NCBI GenBank assembly: GCA_002450165.1
Contig: DJYQ01000012.1
Span: forward strand, 519-64,518
Reading direction: 5' to 3'
Origin: Prevotellaceae bacterium UBA6974
GTDB taxonomy: Bacteria > Bacteroidota > Bacteroidia > Bacteroidales > Bacteroidaceae
DNA length: 64,000 bases
Shown: positions 1,427 through 56,465 of the stretch, in pieces
Layout of the letters: every line of letters begins with the position of its first letter
Position numbering within the stretch: position 1 is the stretch's first letter
The notes under the pieces: model-generated
What the model was told of the DNA's origin: nothing
The model's input: the letters and a program-made list of their open reading frames with translations, nothing else
The model's database searches: none
Position numbers and translations under genes: made by a program

Positions 1427-3904
1427 CTAGTTAGACTTCCAAAGAAGAACATTCTCCGTTGTACAGGCAGAACCTTTTGTTGCATTGCAGTTAGTCGTAT
1501 AGATAGAACCTATATAGGGATCCATATGACTGGTATGGTCTTCCCATCTTACAGCATTACCAAAACACTCAAAATTCAAATTACAAGTTACTTCTGCCTT
1601 ACAGAAATCATAAGGACCGCCATCTGGAATATTAAAATCAGCATACGAATACAGCAACCATCCGTCATAGGTCGGGTTAACTGGAGTAGTAACACTCTCT
1701 GTCATTTCCGTCACGACAGAAGGACCGCTTGCCTGAGTTGTCCATTTAAGTGTTATTGTACCCTTGATCATACCGGTAAGAACACCGTTGCTCTTGCGGA
1801 CGCAATAAACACGAACCTTGTCACCTGGTCCAATCTCGCCACGCTCAGTATCCTCTCCAACACCGCCTTTCTTGACTTTGTAGTCAAAGCCCTTCCATGT
1901 AGGCGGTACAACATCATATCGAACTCTTTCTTGAGTATATATAAGGGATAATCTATTGTCCGTCCCATTATCGAAATAAATTGTTGCAGCACGTACCTCG
2001 CCTGTTGTGTTGGCATCGAACGTAATCTCTGGATATAATTCATATATTTTTCCGTTCTCTAAGACATTGTAACTCATTGTTCCTAAATGCGCCCAACTCT
2101 CGCTGCAACTAAGTTCCACATCTCTCGTAGTTGTCAGTACGACAGTCTTTGTGCCACCCTCGGCCGGGACTACATAGTTGTTGTCCTGGTCACGAACAGT
2201 TAAATTCCATTCCTCTGAATATCCGCCGTTGGCCATAATGGTCAGTATGGTTGTGACATCACCAATCTCTATCTCACCATTGCCATTGGCATCAGCAGCC
2301 TTTTTGTCGTATCCGATTGCTTCCGGCGTAGCCATCAGAGTTAGCACGGATGTAACGTCACCTATCTCAACCTCGCCGTTGCCATTGGCGTCTCCTACGA
2401 TATATGTAGGTTCTGCAACATGAAGGATAGTTCCGAAATTTTTCCAAGGAGTAGTAGATTCGTATGTATCTAAAGATGTTTCTGGTACATACAGCGTTGC
2501 AGACGCTATGGTGCCACTTTGGAAAACATTTGGTCCAGTAGACGGCACCTGTTCTGCCAAGCAGGTTACTGATGTCAGGCTACTACAACCACCGAATGCA
2601 GAGCTCTCAATGCTTGTCACACTATTGCCTATGGTCACTGATGTCAGGTCGCTGCAACCATAGAAAGCATAACCTCCAATACTTGTCACACTGTTGGGAA
2701 TGGTGACTGATGTCAAGTCTCTACAATCCTCGAAAGCAGATCTCCCAATGCTTGTCACACTGTTTGGGATGGTAACTGATGTCAGGCCACTGCAACCAGA
2801 GAAAGCATAGTTTCCAATGCTTGTCACACTGTTGCCAATGGTTACTGATGTCAGTCCGCTACAACCATAGAAAGCAGAACTTCCAATACTTGTCACACTG
2901 TTGGGAATGCTTGCTGATGTCAGGCCACTGCAATACGCGAAAGCACCTTCTCCAATGCTTGTCACACTCTTGCCAATGGTTACTGATATCAGGCCACTGC
3001 AATCATTGAAAGTCATCTCTCCAATGCTTGTCACGCTGTTGGGAATGGTTACAGATGTCAGGCCACTGCAACCACGGAAAGCTTCTTTTCCAATGCTTGT
3101 CACGCTATTGGGAATGGTTACTGATGTCAGTTCGCTGCAACCATAGAAAGCAGAACTTTCAATGCTTGTCACACTGTTGGGAATGGTTGTGGTTTTACAA
3201 CCAACAATCAGAGTATTTGTAGATGATTCTATAATAGCATTACAGTTATTCCTGCAATCATACTTAGGATTACCTTCTTCAACCTTTAACGATGTCAGGC
3301 CACTGCAATACGCGAAAGCACCTTCTCCAATGCTTGTCACACTGTTGGGAATGGTCACTGATGTCAGGCCGCTACAGCCACTGAAAGCAAATCTTCCAAT
3401 GCTTGTCACACTGTTAGGTAGGATTATGGAAGTAAGACTTCTGCAATTTTTAAAACATTCTTTTCCTATAAATTTCACACTATTGCCTATAGTAATGGAT
3501 TTAAGGGAATAGCAGTTCTCGAATGTTTCTTCTTCAATGCCGGTCACACCATTACCAATAGTCACGTATTCGAGAGCATTGCAGCTATCAAAGGTGCTTT
3601 GTCCGACACTTGTCACACTGTTGGGAATGGTTATTGATGTCAGTTCGCTGCAACCATAGAAAGCATATTCTCCAATGCTTGTCACTTCATAGGTCTTACT
3701 ACTATATGTTACTTTAGATGGAATTATAATTGAGCCGGAATATGAATTATAATATTTCGTTTTATAAGTTACCGTTACGCTCGTTTTGTCGGAATTTATA
3801 TTGTAATAAATACCATCTAATACAAAATCATACGCCCATGAGAGGGTGCTGACAGTAAGGAACAAGATAGAGACGAGAAGTCGCTGCAATAGATATTGTT
3901 TCAT
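1427..3904 (-). CDS. BspA-type leucine-rich-repeat surface protein with a dockerin-like EF-hand pair, a BACON-like segment and a Cys-rich C-terminal region
   Basis: The ATG at 3904 gives the signal peptide MKQYLLQRLLVSILFLTVSTLSWA. The longer listed ORF starts at a TTG (3949) inside the predicted -7 box. About 15 tandem ~23-aa units match IPNSVTSIGxxAFxGCSGLTSVT. Two GDANGNGE(V/I)EIGDVT segments are spaced like a type I dockerin. No T9SS-type tail is present. Confidence 0.85.
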   Translation of the reverse strand: MKQYLLQRLLVSILFLTVSTLSWAYDFVLDGIYYNINSDKTSVTVTYKTKYYNSYSGSIIIPSKVTYSSKTYEVTSIGEYAFYGCSELTSITIPNSVTSVGQSTFDSCNALEYVTIGNGVTGIEEETFENCYSLKSITIGNSVKFIGKECFKNCRSLTSIILPNSVTSIGRFAFSGCSGLTSVTIPNSVTSIGEGAFAYCSGLTSLKVEEGNPKYDCRNNCNAIIESSTNTLIVGCKTTTIPNSVTSIESSAFYGCSELTSVTIPNSVTSIGKEAFRGCSGLTSVTIPNSVTSIGEMTFNDCSGLISVTIGKSVTSIGEGAFAYCSGLTSASIPNSVTSIGSSAFYGCSGLTSVTIGNSVTSIGNYAFSGCSGLTSVTIPNSVTSIGRSAFEDCRDLTSVTIPNSVTSIGGYAFYGCSDLTSVTIGNSVTSIESSAFGGCSSLTSVTCLAEQVPSTGPNVFQSGTIASATLYVPETSLDTYESTTPWKNFGTILHVAEPTYIVGDANGNGEVEIGDVTSVLTLMATPEAIGYDKKAADANGNGEIEIGDVTTILTIMANGGYSEEWNLTVRDQDNNYVVPAEGGTKTVVLTTTRDVELSCSESWAHLGTMSYNVLENGKIYELYPEITFDANTTGEVRAATIYFDNGTDNRLSLIYTQERVRYDVVPPTWKGFDYKVKKGGVGEDTERGEIGPGDKVRVYCVRKSNGVLTGMIKGTITLKWTTQASGPSVVTEMTESVTTPVNPTYDGWLLYSYADFNIPDGGPYDFCKAEVTCNLNFECFGNAVRWEDHTSHMDPYIGSIYTTNCNATKGSACTTENVLLWKSN

Positions 3905-3946
3905 GGTAATCACTTTTTGCTTTGATTTGATGTCATAGCGATAACG

Positions 3947-3954
3947 CAAAGTTA
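3947..3954 (-). promoter_or_regulatory. Candidate Bacteroidetes -7 promoter box (TAACTTTG on the minus strand) for the LRR gene
   Basis: The plus strand reads CAAAGTTA, the reverse complement of the TAnnTTTG consensus. It lies 43 nt upstream of the ATG at 3904. Confidence 0.4.
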
Positions 3955-44420: not shown

Positions 44421-46331
44421 GTGAAAATTTTTAATTTTCTTGCCATTCTCCTGTTGTTATGCATAGGAACTACCTATGTTGCCAATGCAGAAAATACGGA
44501 TACCTTGACAATGAACGAGGTTGTCGTAACAGGGGTTCGTGAAGGTACCACACAATCGCAGCTACCCGTTACGGTCAGTGTTTTGGATAGGACAGAATTG
44601 TGCCGTACGTATCGTGCAGAAATTCTGCCATCACTCTTGGAACAGGTTCCAGGAGTCATGGTTACTTCACGCGGAATGATGGGTTACGGTGTAAGTACAG
44701 GAGCAGCCGGAGGCATATTGGTTCGTGGTCTGTCATCAAGTAATGCGCAAGTACTGGTACTGATAGACGGACACCCTCAGTATAATGGCATTTTTGGCCA
44801 TTCTATCGCAGACAGCTACCAGACATTGATTGCAGACCGTGTCGAGGTCATACGCGGTCCGGCTTCTCTCCTGTATGGTTCGAATGCTATGGGAGGCGTA
44901 GTAAATATAATAACGCGACAGGTACCTGCGGCAGACAGTCTGGGCAGATGCGTCAACAGTAATACAAGCATTCAGGTTGGCGGTGGCAGTTACGGCACCT
45001 TTCAAGCCGAAGCTGCAAACCAACTGCGATATAGGAAATTCTACAGCACAATATTAGCACAATACGGACGTAGCGATAACCACAGACCCAACATGGGTTT
45101 CCAGCAGTACGGGGGGCTTGTCAAGTTGGGTTGGGATATTTCAAGCCATTGGACATTGACAGGCGACATGGACGTAACCCATTTTGACGCTTCCAACCCA
45201 GGTAGCGTCAGCAAACCAATGCTGGAAAATGACCAAATCATTACAAGGTGTCAGGCAAATGTCGTGTTGCATAATAGATATGGACGTCACTGTGGAGCCT
45301 TTAGCGTGTACGACAATTTCGGGTACCATAAGATTAACGATGGCTATGTAGCAGGCGGCACTCCGCAGACAGATCTGTTTAACTCGTATGATGCAGTAGC
45401 GGGTTTCTCGGCATACGAGAATCTTAATTTTTTTCTTAAGAATCCAATGTCGTTGACCGTTGGATTGGACTACAAGCACATTCATGGCCATGCGTGGTAT
45501 TCTGACAGGATAACGGGCAAGACGGTAACAACTCCCAGACGTTTGAAGCAAAGTACCCTGAGTAACGAAGACGAGATAGCTACCTATGTTGATATACGCC
45601 AGCAGGCAGGAAAACGCCTCATTATAGATGCCGGTATCAGGCTTGATTACCACACACGCGCCGGACTTGAGGCCATACCGCAGGCAGGTATCATATACAA
45701 GATTATTCCTACAGGTCAGCTGAGAGCAACTTTCAGCAAGGGATTTCGTAATCCAACGATGCGAGAGATGTTTATGTATGGTACAGCCAACAGCGAAACA
45801 CTGCATGCCGAGAGTATGCTGAACTACGAAATTGCATGGCGCCATACACCGTGTAACGGCAAGGTAGAATATGGAGTCAACATGTTCATATCAGATGGAA
45901 AGAATATGATACAGACCGTAAATGGGAAAAATATAAACAGCGGCACGTTTCTGAACAAAGGCATCGAAGCAGATTTTGTCTGGCACATATCCAGGCATTG
46001 GAGCATGAATACAAACCACAGCTATTTGCATCAGCGCAATGTAACTGTGGGAGCGCCGATTTACAAAGGTCATGTGGGCGCGGATATGAAATACGGTCGT
46101 TGGCAGGCATCAGCCTCGCTCACCATGTTGACAGGATTATGTACACAAGTCGCAGAAGATGTGGTCAGGGAGGATTTCGCCCTTCTGAATATTGCTGTCA
46201 GTTACCAGGCAGCACGATGTATGACATTGTGGGCGCGTGGCGAAAACCTGCTTGCCCAACGATACGAGATAAATTATGGCTATCCGATGCCGCGTGCAAC
46301 ATTCATGGCTGGAATAAAGGTAAAATTCTAA
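44421..46331 (+). CDS. TonB-dependent receptor (small, BtuB/FepA-size, no SusD partner)
   Basis: A signal peptide is followed by the plug-domain start LTMNEVVVTG and the C-terminal beta-barrel ending ...MAGIKVKF. Length is 636 aa. Confidence 0.9.
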   Translation: MKIFNFLAILLLLCIGTTYVANAENTDTLTMNEVVVTGVREGTTQSQLPVTVSVLDRTELCRTYRAEILPSLLEQVPGVMVTSRGMMGYGVSTGAAGGILVRGLSSSNAQVLVLIDGHPQYNGIFGHSIADSYQTLIADRVEVIRGPASLLYGSNAMGGVVNIITRQVPAADSLGRCVNSNTSIQVGGGSYGTFQAEAANQLRYRKFYSTILAQYGRSDNHRPNMGFQQYGGLVKLGWDISSHWTLTGDMDVTHFDASNPGSVSKPMLENDQIITRCQANVVLHNRYGRHCGAFSVYDNFGYHKINDGYVAGGTPQTDLFNSYDAVAGFSAYENLNFFLKNPMSLTVGLDYKHIHGHAWYSDRITGKTVTTPRRLKQSTLSNEDEIATYVDIRQQAGKRLIIDAGIRLDYHTRAGLEAIPQAGIIYKIIPTGQLRATFSKGFRNPTMREMFMYGTANSETLHAESMLNYEIAWRHTPCNGKVEYGVNMFISDGKNMIQTVNGKNINSGTFLNKGIEADFVWHISRHWSMNTNHSYLHQRNVTVGAPIYKGHVGADMKYGRWQASASLTMLTGLCTQVAEDVVREDFALLNIAVSYQAARCMTLWARGENLLAQRYEINYGYPMPRATFMAGIKVKF

Positions 46332-46353
46332 CAAAAACGAAATAGATTATATT

Positions 46354-47319
46354 ATGAAAAAGACATTGTCATTTTTAGTATTGGGGCTGTTGACGGCATC
46401 AAGCGCGCTTGCACAAAGCAATGTTTATGTAACACGTGAGATAACCCCCGAGTCTCTTGTCAGGATTTACAAGGCTCTTGGTCGCAAGGCAATCGGACGC
46501 GTGGCAGTCAAGATCAGTACAGGAGAATCTGAGAAGACTGGCTACCTGCGACCGGAATTCATCAAGCCATTGTTAGATGAGGTTAACGGTACGATAGTAG
46601 AATGCAATACAGCGTATGGCGGCAGCCGATGTACTACAGAGAAGCACTGGAAGGCCATCGAGGAACGCGGTTTCCTGCGGGTAGGCAAAGTAGATATCAT
46701 GGATGGCGAAGATACGATTCACATTCCGCTGAAGGATACTTCGCGCTTGAAATACGACATTGTTGGAAGCCACATGCGCAATTACGATTTCATGATTAAC
46801 CTGGCACATTTCAAAGGTCACCAGATGGGAGGTTTTGGGGGCGTGCTGAAGAATGCTTCCATAGGCGTAGCTTCCTCTGCAGGCAAAGCCTATATCCATT
46901 CGGCAGGTGTTACGGAAGATGTGGTAGAGTGCTGGAAGCATACTGGTGATCAGGATGGGTTCCTCGAAGCAATGGCTGCAACGGCACAAGGTGTACACGA
47001 GTATTTCAATGGAGGAAAGAACATCCTGTATATAAGCGTAATGAACAAAATGAGCATCGACTGCGACTGCAACGGCAATCCAAAGGCGCCCCTTATTGCT
47101 GATTACGGAATTGTCGCCAGCCTCGACCCCGTAGCCCTGGATCAGGCAACATATGACATCGTTGCCAATCTGCATAACGATGCACACAATAATACCAAAC
47201 CATTGCTGGACCGTATAAGGAAGCAGAATGGAACACACACGATAGAATGGGCCGAAAAGATAGGCTTAGGCTCCCGCCAGTATAAACTTGTCAACTTGGA
47301 CAGAAAACCAAGGAAGTAA
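46354..47319 (+). CDS. Exported DUF362-family protein
   Basis: The signal peptide is MKKTLSFLVLGLLTASSALA. LAHFKGHQMGGFGGVLKN and SIDCDCNG resemble DUF362 as I recall it. An HMM search should confirm this. Confidence 0.7.
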   Translation: MKKTLSFLVLGLLTASSALAQSNVYVTREITPESLVRIYKALGRKAIGRVAVKISTGESEKTGYLRPEFIKPLLDEVNGTIVECNTAYGGSRCTTEKHWKAIEERGFLRVGKVDIMDGEDTIHIPLKDTSRLKYDIVGSHMRNYDFMINLAHFKGHQMGGFGGVLKNASIGVASSAGKAYIHSAGVTEDVVECWKHTGDQDGFLEAMAATAQGVHEYFNGGKNILYISVMNKMSIDCDCNGNPKAPLIADYGIVASLDPVALDQATYDIVANLHNDAHNNTKPLLDRIRKQNGTHTIEWAEKIGLGSRQYKLVNLDRKPRK

Positions 47320-52216: not shown

Positions 52217-52224
52217 TAAATTTG
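52217..52224 (+). promoter_or_regulatory. Candidate -7 box (TAAATTTG) preceding the riboswitch
   Basis: It matches TAnnTTTG, about 8 nt before the first conserved riboswitch block. Confidence 0.45.
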
Positions 52225-52229
52225 CGCTG

Positions 52230-52400
52230 CATTTGGTTCACAAGACTGCGTAAATAGTCGAGTGCTAAGATGGGAATGCAGTGAGATTCTGCAACATTGC
52301 CCGATGCTGTAAGTCCTTTGTAAGGTAATACAGATGCCACTGTGTAACGGGAAGGCGTATTACTTTCGGAACGAGTCAGAAGACCTGCCAATGCCAGCGT
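52230..52400 (+). promoter_or_regulatory. Cobalamin (B12) riboswitch aptamer
   Basis: All conserved blocks appear in order: GGTTC, AAGATGGGAA, CAGTGAGATTCTG, TTGCCCGATGCTGTAA, the B12 box GCCACTG-N7-GGGAAGGC, and AGTCAGAAGACCTGCC. An expression platform of about 90 nt follows before the ATG at 52491. Confidence 0.9.
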
Positions 52401-52490
52401 AGTAGAACCCTGCGGGATTACGGGGGACGAAATCAATGCTGATATGATATAACCGCACGCTATATGCGTGCTATAATGCTATGTAGTCTA

Positions 52491-53534
52491 ATGAGAAAAC
52501 TAAATTACTATCTGCTGACTCTTGCGGTGCTGGCGTTCGTTGTGATAACGGAAGCCAGTGCGCAGAGTCTTAATTCACCCTACCTGAACAAGGTTTATGA
52601 ATATGTGCCTGCCCCAGGTCAGTTTATCAACACCATGCCCGAGTGGGAAGATGGTGACGATGCAGGGACTATGGCAGCAAAGTGTACCGAACTGCTTGCC
52701 GATGAGGGTATGATTTGCCTTGGTGGCTTTGGTGGCTATGTAACTTTTGGCTTTGATCACCCAGTAGTTAACGTTGCAGGCGAGTATGACCTGTATATTA
52801 TGGGTAATGCATTTGCAGGTACCGGCCTGACAGATGCAGGCAGTTCGGAGCCTGGAATTGTCATGGTCAGTCAGGATACCAACGGAAACGGTCTTCCCGA
52901 TGATGAATGGTACGAGCTTAGCGGCAGTGCCGACATAGACAGTGTCGGCAAGGTGGTGTACAACTACGGGATTACCTACAAATACGCAGGCGAGAAGAAA
53001 CCTATCGCATGGACTGACAATCAGGGAGGTAAGGGTGTTATGGTACGCAATGCATATCATGACCAGGAATATTTCCCCGCATGGCTGACAAGTGCAGGTT
53101 CCCTGACTTTTACTGGCACGTTGCTGCCTAAGAATATGTACAAGGACAGTGAAACCGGCCAGTTTGTCATGAGGTTTCTTCGCTATGGCTATGTTGACAA
53201 CAAGCCTAATCTTATTGACGGCAGAAAGAACGAGGCATGTTGCTTTAACCTGGATTGGGCAGTTGACCATGAACGCCAGCCAGTTAAGCTCAGTCAGATT
53301 GATTTTGTGCGCGTATATTGTGCCATGAACCAGATTAACGGTCTGCTGGGCGAAACCAGTACCGAATTTGCGGGTGCCGAGGACCTGCACCCGTCAGCAG
53401 TACCTACAGCTGTGGTTGATATTGCAACATCCGGAACCCCGGAAGCCGGCATATACTACGATCTGACTGGTCGTAAGACAAGCCCCAACGCCAAGGGTGT
53501 GCTCATCACTAACGGAAAACTTATCATAAAGTAA
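52491..53534 (+). CDS. Secreted protein of unknown function with a T9SS-like C-terminal tail
   Basis: The ATG at 52491 gives the signal peptide MRKLNYYLLTLAVLAFVVITEASA. The protein ends ...GIYYDLTGRKTSPNAKGVLITNGKLIIK. It is the first gene after the riboswitch. Confidence 0.7.
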   Translation: MRKLNYYLLTLAVLAFVVITEASAQSLNSPYLNKVYEYVPAPGQFINTMPEWEDGDDAGTMAAKCTELLADEGMICLGGFGGYVTFGFDHPVVNVAGEYDLYIMGNAFAGTGLTDAGSSEPGIVMVSQDTNGNGLPDDEWYELSGSADIDSVGKVVYNYGITYKYAGEKKPIAWTDNQGGKGVMVRNAYHDQEYFPAWLTSAGSLTFTGTLLPKNMYKDSETGQFVMRFLRYGYVDNKPNLIDGRKNEACCFNLDWAVDHERQPVKLSQIDFVRVYCAMNQINGLLGETSTEFAGAEDLHPSAVPTAVVDIATSGTPEAGIYYDLTGRKTSPNAKGVLITNGKLIIK

Positions 53535-53569
53535 ACTATAACATTATTAATTATTAAAATTTTCAGCTT

Positions 53570-55285
53570 ATGAAGAGAATCTTTACTCTTATGCTTGCCC
53601 TGGTGGCTGTAATAGGCATTCAGGCGCAGGGACACATCAATCTTCATCTGACAGGATGTACCGCCGCCGATGGTAATCCTACAGAGTTAACAGATGATGA
53701 CGGTTATGTCGAACTATACTTCAATGTAGAGAGCGGCTACACCTTTGCCGGAGCCGAGATTTCCGTAAAACACGGTGAGACAGAGTTCTCGGCAGAATAC
53801 GGTGCATCTGCTGGGTACTATTATTTTGAGGGCGGTAATCTGTTCTTAATGTATGACGACGACATAACCGAAGATTTTGATGTAACCATTACATGTAGGG
53901 AGGAGCAGGTCGGACCAGAACTGCCAGCAGTATTCTCGCCCGCAACCTTCGAGGATCTGGAAATCGCCGGAAACAGCGTATATCGCCCCGCATCATTTGT
54001 TCCCGGTGATAACAAGTGGCTCAGTGGTGCTGCACGTTTCAATACAAATGTAATGGACTGGAGCATGTATGGACTGGGCTATGGCTATTCGGCAATTCAG
54101 GCGGTAAGCTACAAGGCAGGTGCAAAAGTTTCGGACACCAGTGATGCTTATTTGCCATCTGCAGTTGGCGCTGCACAGGGCAACAATTATGCCACAATCA
54201 ACATCATGAGTGCATTCGAGAAGATAAATTTCACGAAGACGACTCTCAGTGGTGTTGCCATTACCAATACGGCAACCAATGTATCTGCATTCATCAATGG
54301 CGACGGAATGAGCGTGGAAACAATAGGAGGAGTAAAGAAATATGGCCTCCCATTCCATCAGGATGACTGGTTCCTGCTCACAATCAAGGGTCTTGACGGT
54401 GAGACGGTTACAGGCACAATCGATTTCTATCTGGCAGACTATCGTACAGAGGGGAATTGGAAATTTGCCAAGAACTGGCAATGGGTTGACCTTAGCTCAC
54501 TTGGTGAAATTGACGGTCTGCAATTCGAATTGTCTTCGACCAAGCACAATAATTACGGTATGTCAACTTCCGCATATTTCTGCATTGACAATCTGGGCGG
54601 CCAGCCAAGCGACTGCAATTTGGGCGACATGACTGCCGCCGTTCCTGCTTCAAACCTTGATGACGATGCGGCTTATGCAGTTACAACCGAGTATGTCGCA
54701 CAATCTGTAACCTATACCCGTTCGATGACAACAGATTGGGGAACTATCTGTCTGCCATACGAGGTTAAGAGCAATGACGATGTCCAGTATTATGAATTGA
54801 TGGGTGCTACGGCAGACGAACTCTCATTCCGACCCGTTACCAAGGTTGCTGCCGGTCAGCCGGCAGTATTCAGGAAACTGACTTCTGGCAGCGACGTAGA
54901 AATCAATGCCGAGAACGTTGTGCTGAAACCCGCAGGGCAGTATTTGACAACAGCCGAAACAGTACCTTCGAACTGGATTATGAATGGCACATTGACAGGT
55001 ACTACGATTCAGGGCATGGACAAGTACTTTGTCGCTCAGAACAAGTTCTGGATTGCCGAAGATGAAACCGAGGTCAAACCATATCGCGGCTGGTTCCAGA
55101 CAACAACCCCCAACAACACCCGCAGCATGGTCATCTCGGTTATTGACGGAGATGCAACCAGCGTCCTCACGATTGACGGCAACGGCAACCTGACCGAAGG
55201 CCAGATGTACGACCTCTCGGGCCGCAAGGTTAACGCCAATGCCAAGGGAATCGTTATCCAGAACAAGAAACTGATTATCAAGTAA
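53570..55285 (+). CDS. Secreted multi-domain protein, central region DUF4465-like, with a T9SS-like C-terminal tail
   Basis: The signal peptide is MKRIFTLMLALVAVIGIQA. The central block (ATFEDLEI...GVAITNT...DWFLLTIKGLDGE...IDFYLADYR...WQWVDLSSLGEIDGLQFELSS...AYFCIDNLG) matches my memory of DUF4465. The protein ends ...MYDLSGRKVNANAKGIVIQNKKLIIK. Confidence 0.7.
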   Translation: MKRIFTLMLALVAVIGIQAQGHINLHLTGCTAADGNPTELTDDDGYVELYFNVESGYTFAGAEISVKHGETEFSAEYGASAGYYYFEGGNLFLMYDDDITEDFDVTITCREEQVGPELPAVFSPATFEDLEIAGNSVYRPASFVPGDNKWLSGAARFNTNVMDWSMYGLGYGYSAIQAVSYKAGAKVSDTSDAYLPSAVGAAQGNNYATINIMSAFEKINFTKTTLSGVAITNTATNVSAFINGDGMSVETIGGVKKYGLPFHQDDWFLLTIKGLDGETVTGTIDFYLADYRTEGNWKFAKNWQWVDLSSLGEIDGLQFELSSTKHNNYGMSTSAYFCIDNLGGQPSDCNLGDMTAAVPASNLDDDAAYAVTTEYVAQSVTYTRSMTTDWGTICLPYEVKSNDDVQYYELMGATADELSFRPVTKVAAGQPAVFRKLTSGSDVEINAENVVLKPAGQYLTTAETVPSNWIMNGTLTGTTIQGMDKYFVAQNKFWIAEDETEVKPYRGWFQTTTPNNTRSMVISVIDGDATSVLTIDGNGNLTEGQMYDLSGRKVNANAKGIVIQNKKLIIK

Positions 55286-55305
55286 ACACTACGAAAACAA
55301 CCGAT

Positions 55306-55488
55306 ATGAAAAAGACATTCGTACAGCCAATGGCACAAACAATTGCCATGGAAGCAGAAGGTCACATCCTGACAGGTTCTCAGCCAATGTCGTCCGGCGG
55401 CAGCAATGCCGGCGGCGGACCGACACAGGCAGACGTCCGTTACAATCCAATGGGAGAGTCCGGCAGCGATGTATTCCTGATGAACTGA
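55306..55488 (+). CDS. Candidate 60-aa small protein (last ORF of the riboswitch operon)
   Basis: The ATG lies 20 nt after the preceding stop on the same strand. The sequence is MKKTFVQPMAQTIAMEAEGHILTGS followed by a Gly/Ser-rich tail. It has no signal peptide, and coding status is unproven. Confidence 0.4.
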   Translation: MKKTFVQPMAQTIAMEAEGHILTGSQPMSSGGSNAGGGPTQADVRYNPMGESGSDVFLMN

Positions 55489-55493
55489 TTTGT

Positions 55494-56465
55494 TTATTCT
55501 CTACGGCCGCTCAGGTCGTAGAGAATACCATCCTTGCGGATGACAAGGCGGCCATTCACTAACAACTTGCTAACCTCGGGCTTAGCGCCTACAAAGACAT
55601 CATCAATGCCCGTAGTGCGCGACAGGGAGGCAAGATCCAGTGTCTGGCCCTTTTTATTACCCCAGATGTACTCGACCAATTCAGGATAGTCGATATAAGG
55701 ATTGCGGTTATGCTGGAAGTCGCTTACGGCATCCATACGGTTCAGCTCTTTCTCGGAAACAGGATCCTGACGATGCCATTTCAACAGGATATCAATTTCC
55801 CAATCCATGAATTCCAGATACTCGTTGGCATCATTTGACGGACGCATGGCATAATACGAGCCAATACCCTTGTTTCCTTTTGCCCATGTCAGTTCATCAC
55901 CGTAGCATGTAGCCATGTAGAAATATGCACGTGCAAAATCCCCCTTGTATTCGTCCTTGGGTTCAAACACATAGAAAGTCTGCTCGTTATAAGTAGCCTT
56001 ACCGACCTTCAGCGAACCAGCATATTTTAGATCCTGCGTAGGCACCCCCAAGGGATAGTTGCTGCGTGCACTGTTGGCTGTTGAGTTTGAGGGATTCAGA
56101 TGGTAGCAGTCTTTGTACGCATCATTTTTGCTGCCGCCCCACCAGCTTTTGGCAAAACTGTGTTCAATATTGCAGCCGCTTGCCACCTGGCCAGGAGAGG
56201 AAATGACACTCCAGTCATCACAATACATATCCATGCATTCGCCTGTTACAGGGTCACGGTCGCTGTAGTAGAATACCTCCCATGTATTACCTTTACCGCT
56301 ACCGTATGGGATTGCAGTATGTGACCTGATAGCTGCGCGTATTGCAGATTTCAGTGTTTTGTCCTTCTTGCCGTCGATATTGTCGTAATACCCCTCGGGC
56401 ATATCTTCGGCATACATGTTCATACTTATGGCAACTGCCATAAATGCAAGTGATATTTTTTTCAT
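55494..56465 (-). CDS. Extracellular endonuclease I family DNase with a shortened T9SS-like tail
   Basis: A signal peptide is present. Endonuclease I blocks are NIEHSFAKSWWGG, HLNPSNSTANSARSNYPLG, GDFARAYFYMATCYG and QHNRNPYIDYPELV. The protein ends ...LVNGRLVIRKDGILYDLSGRRE. Confidence 0.85.
   Translation of the reverse strand: MKKISLAFMAVAISMNMYAEDMPEGYYDNIDGKKDKTLKSAIRAAIRSHTAIPYGSGKGNTWEVFYYSDRDPVTGECMDMYCDDWSVISSPGQVASGCNIEHSFAKSWWGGSKNDAYKDCYHLNPSNSTANSARSNYPLGVPTQDLKYAGSLKVGKATYNEQTFYVFEPKDEYKGDFARAYFYMATCYGDELTWAKGNKGIGSYYAMRPSNDANEYLEFMDWEIDILLKWHRQDPVSEKELNRMDAVSDFQHNRNPYIDYPELVEYIWGNKKGQTLDLASLSRTTGIDDVFVGAKPEVSKLLVNGRLVIRKDGILYDLSGRRE

Follow-up and report, generated by a model that had tools for sequence, protein, structure and literature searches.

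Our picture of vitamin B12 capture in Bacteroidota rests almost wholly on Bacteroides thetaiotaomicron, in which the accessory binders BtuG, BtuH, BtuJ, and BtuK are all lipoproteins. Bacteroides species are not known to have a type IX secretion system (T9SS). Among described proteins, those closest to the ones considered here are BtuH2 (BT1956), whose B12-binding C-terminal domain has been solved (7BIZ), the equivalent domain fused to BtuG1 (8BLW_B), and the DUF4465 binders (9FCT, 9QPM, 9I2L, 9HMU), BtuJ1 and BtuJ2 (BT1491/BT1957) among them. B12 binding has been demonstrated for eight distantly related DUF4465 proteins, and the conserved HI-loop motif (N/G)TPAYF contains the B12-binding tyrosine (Clarke et al., PMC13398666). 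A separate line of research has described 48 "short CTDs" (C-terminal domains) in Prevotella intermedia (Ye et al., PMC11969387). These T9SS signals, 40 to 55 amino acids (aa) long, are built of three strands that correspond to strands 3, 6, and 7 of the long CTDs and are cleaved and glycosylated like long CTDs in P. intermedia. They are marked by a PT/GI cleavage site and by three further motifs: B, in which Y..G is accompanied by a basic residue; D, GxY or GxN with Ile next to it; and E, a conserved K/R together with one more basic residue (PMC11969387).

Here, we analyze positions 52217 to 55488 of a 64,000-nucleotide (nt) stretch from Prevotellaceae bacterium UBA6974 (assembly GCA_002450165.1, contig DJYQ01000012.1, positions 519 to 64,518 of the forward strand), the whole of which is referred to below as the window. 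In this segment, a cobalamin riboswitch precedes two genes for proteins with signal peptides, designated A and B, and a small open reading frame (ORF). The data suggest that the locus is probably a B12-repressed accessory unit of the Bacteroidota Btu cobamide uptake system which, in this uncultured rumen Prevotellaceae, is delivered to the outside by the T9SS. An earlier note on this DNA had proposed that the two proteins form a corrinoid-capture pair, a proposal that is borne out to the extent that gene A falls in the BtuH-type family and gene B in the DUF4465/BtuJ family.

The product of gene A is, by sequence and predicted structure, a stand-alone BtuH-type B12-binding domain. Its residues 27 to 300 match 7BIZ with a phmmer E value of 1.3e-51 and 8BLW_B with an E value of 2.1e-68, the same globular domain being shared with both at 40 to 47% identity. 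The AF2 (AlphaFold2) model (predicted local distance difference test [pLDDT], 91.1) retrieved 8BLW_B (6e-30) and 7BIZ (1e-27) and nothing else in Foldseek, with a query-normalized TM-score of 0.70, so that the structural comparison with BtuH proposed in the earlier note had a positive outcome. No Pfam or NCBIfam model matched gene A, for which >5,670 homologs were found; an exact look-up of it in the contig collection returned no record. Gene A shares with BtuH2 the riboswitch-controlled btu context and most of the ligand contacts. It differs from BtuH2 in that it has neither a lipobox/lipoprotein export signal nor N-terminal PKD domains or a propeller, carries a 41-aa short CTD, has three corrin contacts replaced, and has no btuB in its operon. 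Its signal peptide ends in ..EASA/QS, and Cys is absent from the N-terminal 60 residues, hence there is no lipobox.

Gene B is, by profile and predicted structure, a carrier of a DUF4465/BtuJ-type B12-binding domain. Residues 163 to 342 match PF14717 (DUF4465) over profile positions 2 to 176 of 176 with 123.8 bits (gathering score, 25). A DUF4465 match had been anticipated for both proteins; this held for gene B and failed for gene A, which is of the BtuH type instead. Sequence matches in the PDB were 9QPM/9FCT (BtuJ1) and 9HMU, and the AF2 model (pLDDT, 83) retrieved 9HMU, 9QPM, 9FCT, 4JQR, and 9I2L in Foldseek at E values from 2e-12 to 3e-7; the relatives identified by sequence and structure (BtuJ1, BtuJ2, D5EK51) have all been solved with B12 bound. 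The HI loop of gene B reads STSAYF, with the tyrosine (Y336) kept, and Y336 and F337 are nearly invariant in the homolog alignment. Like BtuJ1/BtuJ2, gene B has the PF14717 jellyroll and the HI-loop Tyr and is the neighbor of a BtuH-type gene behind a cobalamin riboswitch; unlike them, it is 571 aa long and has an immunoglobulin (Ig)-like N-domain, a penultimate domain, a Sec signal instead of a lipobox, and a short CTD. The signal ends in ..IQA/QG and is of the plain Sec type without a lipobox. Cys30 (LTGC) was considered as a lipobox cysteine and rejected because it is part of the Ig-like domain, in a stretch modeled with confidence as beta strand, and because the surrounding motif, INLHLTGCT, is conserved downstream of the signal peptide.

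Control of the unit by B12 would be exerted by the riboswitch. RF00174 matched the segment with 91.3 bits (E value, 2.5e-21; gathering score, 31.5) over the whole model (positions 1 to 189), in agreement with the riboswitch that the earlier note had placed at 52230 to 52400, and this was the only riboswitch match in the window. The B12 box, GCCACTG-N6-GGGAAGGC (52336 to 52356), has a spacer of 6 nt and not the 7 nt first given, and AGTCAGAAGACCTGCC (52374 to 52389) also lies inside the riboswitch. The -7 box reported in front of the riboswitch was recovered as well: TAAATTTG is a putative promoter element, present as TAAATTTG in locus L008 and as TATTTTTG in L009, with no TTTG at the expected -33 distance from it. 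The three co-oriented ORFs that the note had listed, i.e., two for signal peptide proteins and one of 60 aa, are all present, with intergenic gaps of 35 and 20 nt, and a terminator scan found no terminator-like site inside the three-gene unit. The operon as a whole would be repressed by B12. Orthologous riboswitches occupy the same position in L001 to L009, and contigs at 88% and 76% protein identity keep the order A-B-small ORF with its riboswitch, the endonuclease I gene again being encoded on the other strand. Persistence of the riboswitch in orthologs, a check suggested in the earlier note, was thus observed in these relatives and more widely in the survey described below. The closest genome is that of the uncultured rumen Prevotellaceae bacterium RUG795 (91% identity).

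The C-terminal tails of both proteins conform to the short-CTD layout, being 41 aa long, situated at the extreme C terminus, and combined with an N-terminal Sec signal. Motifs B and E are found in each of them (YDLTGRK in A, YDLSGRK in B, and KLIIK in both). Over the tails IYYDLTGRKTSPNAKGVLITNGKLIIK and QMYDLSGRKVNANAKGIVIQNKKLIIK, 17 of 27 residues and 49 of 81 nt are identical, with 9, 6, and 17 differences at the first, second, and third codon positions, respectively. Because the differences fall mostly at third positions, the likeness of the tails is, on these counts, one kept by selection and not that of a recent copy. In the gene A model, the tail forms short strands (residues ~322 to 346; pLDDT, ~85). 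In hhalign comparisons with canonical CTDs, tails of the window type (T1), taken from gene A homologs, scored 82% probability (P 1e-5), and a second type found in gene A homologs (T2) scored 87% (P 4e-6) with a single 14-aa gap; each score lay above those of all 100 of 100 column shuffles, which speaks for homology of such tails to strands 3, 6, and 7 of long CTDs. Most of the 120 gene A homologs listed, out of the >5,670 found, have short tails.

The distribution of the tails was followed in a survey of 80 loci from GTDB species representatives, which contained 82 BtuH-domain genes and were annotated with profiles built for this analysis. A lipobox was present in 19 of the 82 proteins, none of which (0/19) had a C-terminal extension. 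Among the 63 proteins without a lipobox, 58 had such an extension. Of these, 40 were short and 11 were long, while 5 belonged to a third type and 2 resembled dockerins. The 5 untailed proteins appear mostly to be truncated ORFs or to have lipoboxes missed by the search pattern. DUF4465 proteins show the same split between lipobox and tail. TIGR04183 recognizes canonical CTDs at this position in orthologs belonging to Muribaculaceae, Paludibacter, Alistipes, and further families (25.0 to 30.8 bits; cutoff, 23), intermediates between the long and short forms score 14 to 16 bits with the same model, and dozens of DUF4465 proteins have PF18962. Dockerin-like repeats (DxNGDGxV...) replace the CTD in some BtuH-domain proteins of rumen Prevotella/Sodaliphilus metagenome-assembled genomes (L051:4245-5495, L065:9995-11104, and P0013, the last with a PF00404 match), and P0240, a gene B relative with PF00404 and PF02368, has a dockerin domain.

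One of the six modified C-terminal peptides reported for P. intermedia, GAEDLHPTAD from A0A1P8JFA6, cleaved N-terminal to Lys (PMC11969387), matches exactly the residues that close the BtuH domain of P0318 and P0319, the P. intermedia/P. nigrescens homologs, where it stands in the context ...EVK/GAEDLHPTAD/KIDAPLNS...GLNIVKLANGKVRKVLVK. P0318 is 50% identical to gene A. A T9SS cargo validated by mass spectrometry in P. intermedia hence appears to be a BtuH homolog, in a paper that never mentions B12 (PMC11969387). The window tails resemble the P. intermedia cargo in signal length (40 to 55 aa) and in the three strands, and differ from A0A1P8JFA6 in motif D, which is GxN in the latter (T2) and GxL or GxV in the window (T1). 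In three loci of related, cultured Prevotella species (L028, L052, and L060, from P. falsenii, P. disiens, and P. ihumii), the BtuH-domain gene lies behind btuG with, unlike the window, no cobalamin riboswitch detected by nhmmer; a BtuB-like receptor ORF was detected in L052 only. This would agree with the homolog having been seen in P. intermedia when cultured in rich medium.

The earlier interpretation of the tails as the last strands of a T9SS CTD is supported, with the correction that TIGR04183 does not match them: it is backed by the mutual exclusion of tail and lipobox, the short-CTD fit, the hhalign scores, the canonical CTDs of orthologs, and the cargo peptide. Under the proposed reading, low intracellular cobamide would let the riboswitch permit expression of the three-gene transcript, and the products of genes A and B would cross the inner membrane via Sec by means of their ordinary signal peptides. 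The T9SS would then recognize the ~41-residue short-CTD tails, which would be cut near PT/A and AT/S, and the proteins would be linked to a surface glycolipid or released. Outside the cell, A and B may capture corrinoids, which they would hand on to an outer membrane BtuG-BtuB complex encoded elsewhere in the genome.

Several observations weigh against this reading. Neither TIGR04183 (a search suggested in the earlier note) nor PF18962 matched either isolated tail at an E value of ≤10. Motif D reads G-V-L-I in A and G-I-V-I in B versus G-x-Y/N-I in P. intermedia, Gly and Ile being kept. The tail of gene B was modeled with low confidence (pLDDT, 47 to 62), and no T9SS component gene was present among the window genes scanned. 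The equation of A0A1P8JFA6 with a BtuH homolog has as its basis the exact 10-residue peptide plus the flanking lysines, not the full accession sequence. The terminator scan found no terminator-like site in the leader, the fold of which was no better than those of shuffled sequences (z, -0.49), and no expression platform was identified in it. Three of the eight BtuH2 contacts are altered in gene A (Y510->Q, W511->F, and W577->L), and W577->L is common to only 12 of 121 homologs, namely, the window lineage and a few others. Finally, the BtuB/BtuG partner is missing from the window: no btuB, btuG, or btuFCD was found in the 64 kb. The TIGR04183/PF18962 failure does not amount to a refutation because the published short CTDs needed a hidden Markov model (HMM) of their own; with the other NCBIfam and Pfam models, the isolated tails gave no relevant match at an E value of ≤10 either.

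The plain signal peptides without a lipobox in both proteins, together with the negative CTD HMM searches and the lack of T9SS genes among those scanned, would also suit periplasmic B12-binding proteins exported by Sec only, with tails that are structural or irrelevant to sorting. Non-lipoprotein DUF4465 proteins have indeed been read as having "periplasmic targeting signals" (PMC13398666). We regard this as very improbable for the window proteins given that tail and lipobox are strictly exclusive over the 82 homologs, that canonical T9SS CTDs and dockerin-like modules take the same position in orthologs, and that the homolog peptide bears the T9SS linking glycan in P. intermedia. A periplasmic BtuH/BtuJ would, in addition, be without a known partner, BtuF being the periplasmic binder.

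A different question is whether the tails could be some other module for surface anchoring or sorting, with a merely outward likeness to the last CTD strands, e.g., a beta-hairpin tag binding an outer membrane or polysaccharide receptor, with another export route. The tail of the endonuclease I encoded next to the operon bears on this. This third type (T3) stops right after a motif-B-like YDLSGR, motifs D and E being missing, and it also ends the Paludibacteraceae DUF4465 proteins P0127 to P0166 and the BtuH-domain proteins of L050, L057, L061, L063, and L069. That T3 is a truncated canonical CTD was considered and rejected, the hhalign score not being significant. The finding of such a permuted tail (K.L.NG.L.I.R.G..Y.L.G) at the equivalent site of homologs as well as on endonuclease I, the presence of dockerin-like tails at that position too, and the departure of motif D (GxL or GxV) from the published pattern could all be accommodated by an unrelated module. 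Such a module would leave unexplained why T1 and T2 score higher against canonical CTDs than any of the shuffle controls and why there are intermediates between the long and short forms; besides, experiments in P. intermedia have shown cleavage and glycosylation of tails of the T2 and GxY types (PMC11969387). We therefore attach little probability to it and retain T9SS export as the preferred reading: the products of genes A and B would use this route in the source organism.

With respect to the ligand, the contact list of Putnam et al. (PMC8941943) for BtuH2 comprises Q333, N399, F401, H476, Y510, W511, W577, and L578, of which Q333, N399, F401, H476, and L578 (5/8) are kept in gene A. The three substitutions fall at corrin contacts of BtuH2 and in combination are seen only in the window lineage and in a small number of other homologs, and the tyrosine of the BtuJ1 DE-loop helix is not evident in gene B from a reading of the alignment. 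Gene A, and perhaps gene B, could thus be no cobalamin binder at all, acting as a relay or adaptor like BtuK2 or on another corrinoid or precursor, in an operon that would still be B12 regulated. This appears unlikely to us in view of the invariant phosphate/ribose contacts and His476, the DUF4465 HI-loop tyrosine kept in gene B, and the riboswitch linkage conserved in the lineage; moreover, DUF4465 proteins at only 16% identity still bind B12 (PMC13398666). Both proteins are accordingly predicted to bind cobamides.

The earlier note had stressed that neither btuB nor btuFCD lies behind the riboswitch, and the same is true of the entire window, in which no BtuB was found at an E value of <1e-10 with a profile made from 54 Bacteroidales BtuB proteins encoded next to riboswitches. 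The TonB-dependent receptor at 44421, described in the note as the nearest one and, correctly, as having no riboswitch, was examined as a possible BtuB in disguise and discarded, since it falls below every curated cutoff and has no match to the BtuB profile. It is of a generic type, 20% identical to a locus BtuB, and its PDB matches are to the plug domain only. With a DUF362 gene it forms a pair (44421 to 47319, + strand) that is present in the 76%-identity relatives (L004 to L007) and, since L001 (88% identity) lacks it at the corresponding site, represents an indel. The partner BtuB/BtuG is likely encoded elsewhere in the source genome.

Across the survey, a cobalamin riboswitch was found on the gene strand ≤5.5 kb upstream of 65 of the 82 BtuH-domain genes. 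The common layout is riboswitch-btuB-btuG-BtuH-domain gene-DUF4465 gene (57/82), and the riboswitch stands directly before the BtuH-domain gene in 8 of the 82. This detached layout is found twice in the window lineage (L008 and L009), three times beside a btuB-btuG operon (L012, L064, and L073), and three times (L019, L021, and L069) with no BtuB-profile match in the DNA fetched around the locus, the partner gene in these last three encoding a giant DUF4465 protein of >2,000 aa. The detached unit is recurrent but a minority. The uncoupling from a transporter seen in the earlier note hence applies to the window and its close relatives and is not general, the common layout including btuB-btuG. 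More than 80% of btuH homologs are in an operon with btuB (PMC8941943), and since this share is not all of them, some lie outside btuB operons. A precedent for a riboswitch unit with accessory genes only is riboswitch-btuK1-btuK2-btuH1 of B. thetaiotaomicron btu operon 1 (PMC13616437), which has its own promoter and, like the unit proposed here, encodes accessory surface B12-handling proteins with no transporter gene. It differs in that it encodes lipoproteins and lies directly upstream of a second riboswitch and btuB1, while the window has no btuB in 64 kb. Giant DUF4465 ORFs of 6.2 to 7.2 kb (roughly 2,060 to 2,400 aa) lie beside a stand-alone BtuH-domain gene in a number of loci (Table 1), several of these pairs being directly behind their own cobalamin riboswitch.

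In a more far-reaching proposal, A and B would be an extracellular "cobalophore" pair, released by the T9SS or tethered to lipopolysaccharide, that works in trans and harvests or sequesters corrinoids away from the cell surface without a dedicated BtuB/BtuG. The W->L, W->F, and Y->Q changes of gene A would then reflect a different cobamide or precursor specificity, and T9SS display, not lipidation, would be the main mode of B12 capture in Prevotellaceae, so that the non-lipoprotein BtuH/BtuJ homologs would be surface proteins, not periplasmic ones. Taken as a whole, we consider this joint proposal possible though doubtful, and continue to favor an accessory unit that hands corrinoids over to a BtuBG complex encoded elsewhere.

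Table 1. Features of the riboswitch operon and its surroundings (window coordinates unless a locus is named)
Feature	Position	Strand	Remarks
Candidate Bacteroidetes -7 promoter box, TAAATTTG	52217..52224	+	Fits consensus TAnnTTTG
Cobalamin riboswitch aptamer	52217..52406	+	RF00174 match
Leader, aptamer to start codon	52407..52490	+	Candidate expression platform
Gene A, 347 aa	52491..53534	+	Sec signal peptide ~1-24, BtuH-type domain 27-300, linker, predicted short T9SS CTD
Predicted short T9SS C-terminal signal, gene A, PT/AVVDIATSGTPEAGIYYDLTGRKTSPNAKGVLITNGKLIIK	53409..53531	+	41 aa after PT
Gene B, 571 aa	53570..55285	+	Signal peptide ~1-19, Ig-like 22-111, jellyroll ~120-345, penultimate domain, predicted short CTD
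Penultimate beta-rich domain of gene B (~358-528; 361-535 in the AF2 model)	54641..55189	+	Unnamed module before C-terminal tail
Predicted short T9SS C-terminal signal, gene B, AT/SVLTIDGNGNLTEGQMYDLSGRKVNANAKGIVIQNKKLIIK	55160..55282	+	41 aa after AT
Small ORF, 60 aa, MKKTFVQPMAQTIAMEAEGHILTGSQ...	55306..55488	+	Probable third operon gene, frame conserved
Endonuclease I gene (PF04231)	55494-56465	-	Convergent, 5 nt after operon's last stop codon
Endonuclease I tail, ..SRTT/GIDDVFVGAKPEVSKLLVNGRLVIRKDGILYDLSGRRE	Within 55494-56465	-	T3 type; PT/GI-like motif, then ~28 aa
Giant DUF4465 ORFs	L012:13051-19617, L019:11035-17568, L021:7306-13863, L025:6555-13778		
Giant DUF4465 ORFs, continued	L046:11088-17618, L063:3761-9961, L069:10987-17592		

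The penultimate domain of gene B has no Pfam match and no PDB fold match, and it recurs in 1,103 representative clusters at an E value of ≤1e-3 (392 at ≤1e-10). Among the matches listed, a few tens of residues separate its end from the C terminus, in proteins of 200 to 1,900 aa, and T1/T2 short tails follow in 80 of the 147 proteins inspected out of the 1,103 representative clusters. Domain and tail together look like a cassette of spacer plus short CTD that is common among secreted proteins of the Prevotella type.

The small ORF has no Pfam or NCBIfam match and no signal peptide. It is kept with its reading frame in L001 to L009, and comparison with the 76%-identity lineage gave 18 identical, 17 synonymous, and 25 nonsynonymous codons, with 17, 14, and 35 differences at the three codon positions. 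Because the frame is kept in relatives and the substitutions are distributed in this way, the small ORF is probably a real gene. Other details of the operon are an alternative ATG of gene A at 52464 and a 6-bp hairpin, GCACGC/GCGTGC, in the leader. Elsewhere in the window, positions 1427 to 3949 (- strand) encode a leucine-rich-repeat protein of the BspA type, 840 aa long (PF13306, 517 bits) and without a CTD-like tail, and the remaining genes are of the housekeeping kind (AcrB-type efflux pump, DNA polymerase I, fumarate reductase, GH2 beta-galactosidase, and arginine decarboxylase).

A surface nutrient capture protein comparable to those proposed here is HBP35 of Porphyromonas gingivalis, a T9SS-secreted hemin-binding protein. 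It, too, is a tetrapyrrole-binding protein brought to the surface by the T9SS via a CTD; its fold and ligand are unrelated, and no riboswitch is involved. The CTD of HBP35 has been described as a 5-stranded sandwich, like those of intermediate length (PMC11969387). BtuH, BtuJ, cobalamin riboswitches, and short CTDs have each already been published, and the PF18962 plus PF14717 architecture is already in databases. In the literature searched, we found no paper linking BtuH to type IX secretion, and there was no mention of the T9SS in the BtuJ/DUF4465 papers checked; the arrangement, as the earlier note had supposed, thus seems not to have been described, though all of its building blocks have. 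The finding joins two literatures, on B12 capture and on T9SS short CTDs, that do not cite each other's point.

Because it combines a single switch with two cargo proteins and lacks a transporter, the detached riboswitch unit offers a simple test bed for asking if a transporter encoded at another site can be supplied by capture proteins. Prevotellaceae are dominant in the rumen and in many human guts. If they display their B12 binders via the T9SS, the share of DUF4465 proteins now interpreted as periplasmic, roughly 30%, would need to be read anew, vitamin scavenging would become a cargo function of the T9SS, and competition for B12 should suffer in T9SS mutants or under inhibitors of the system.

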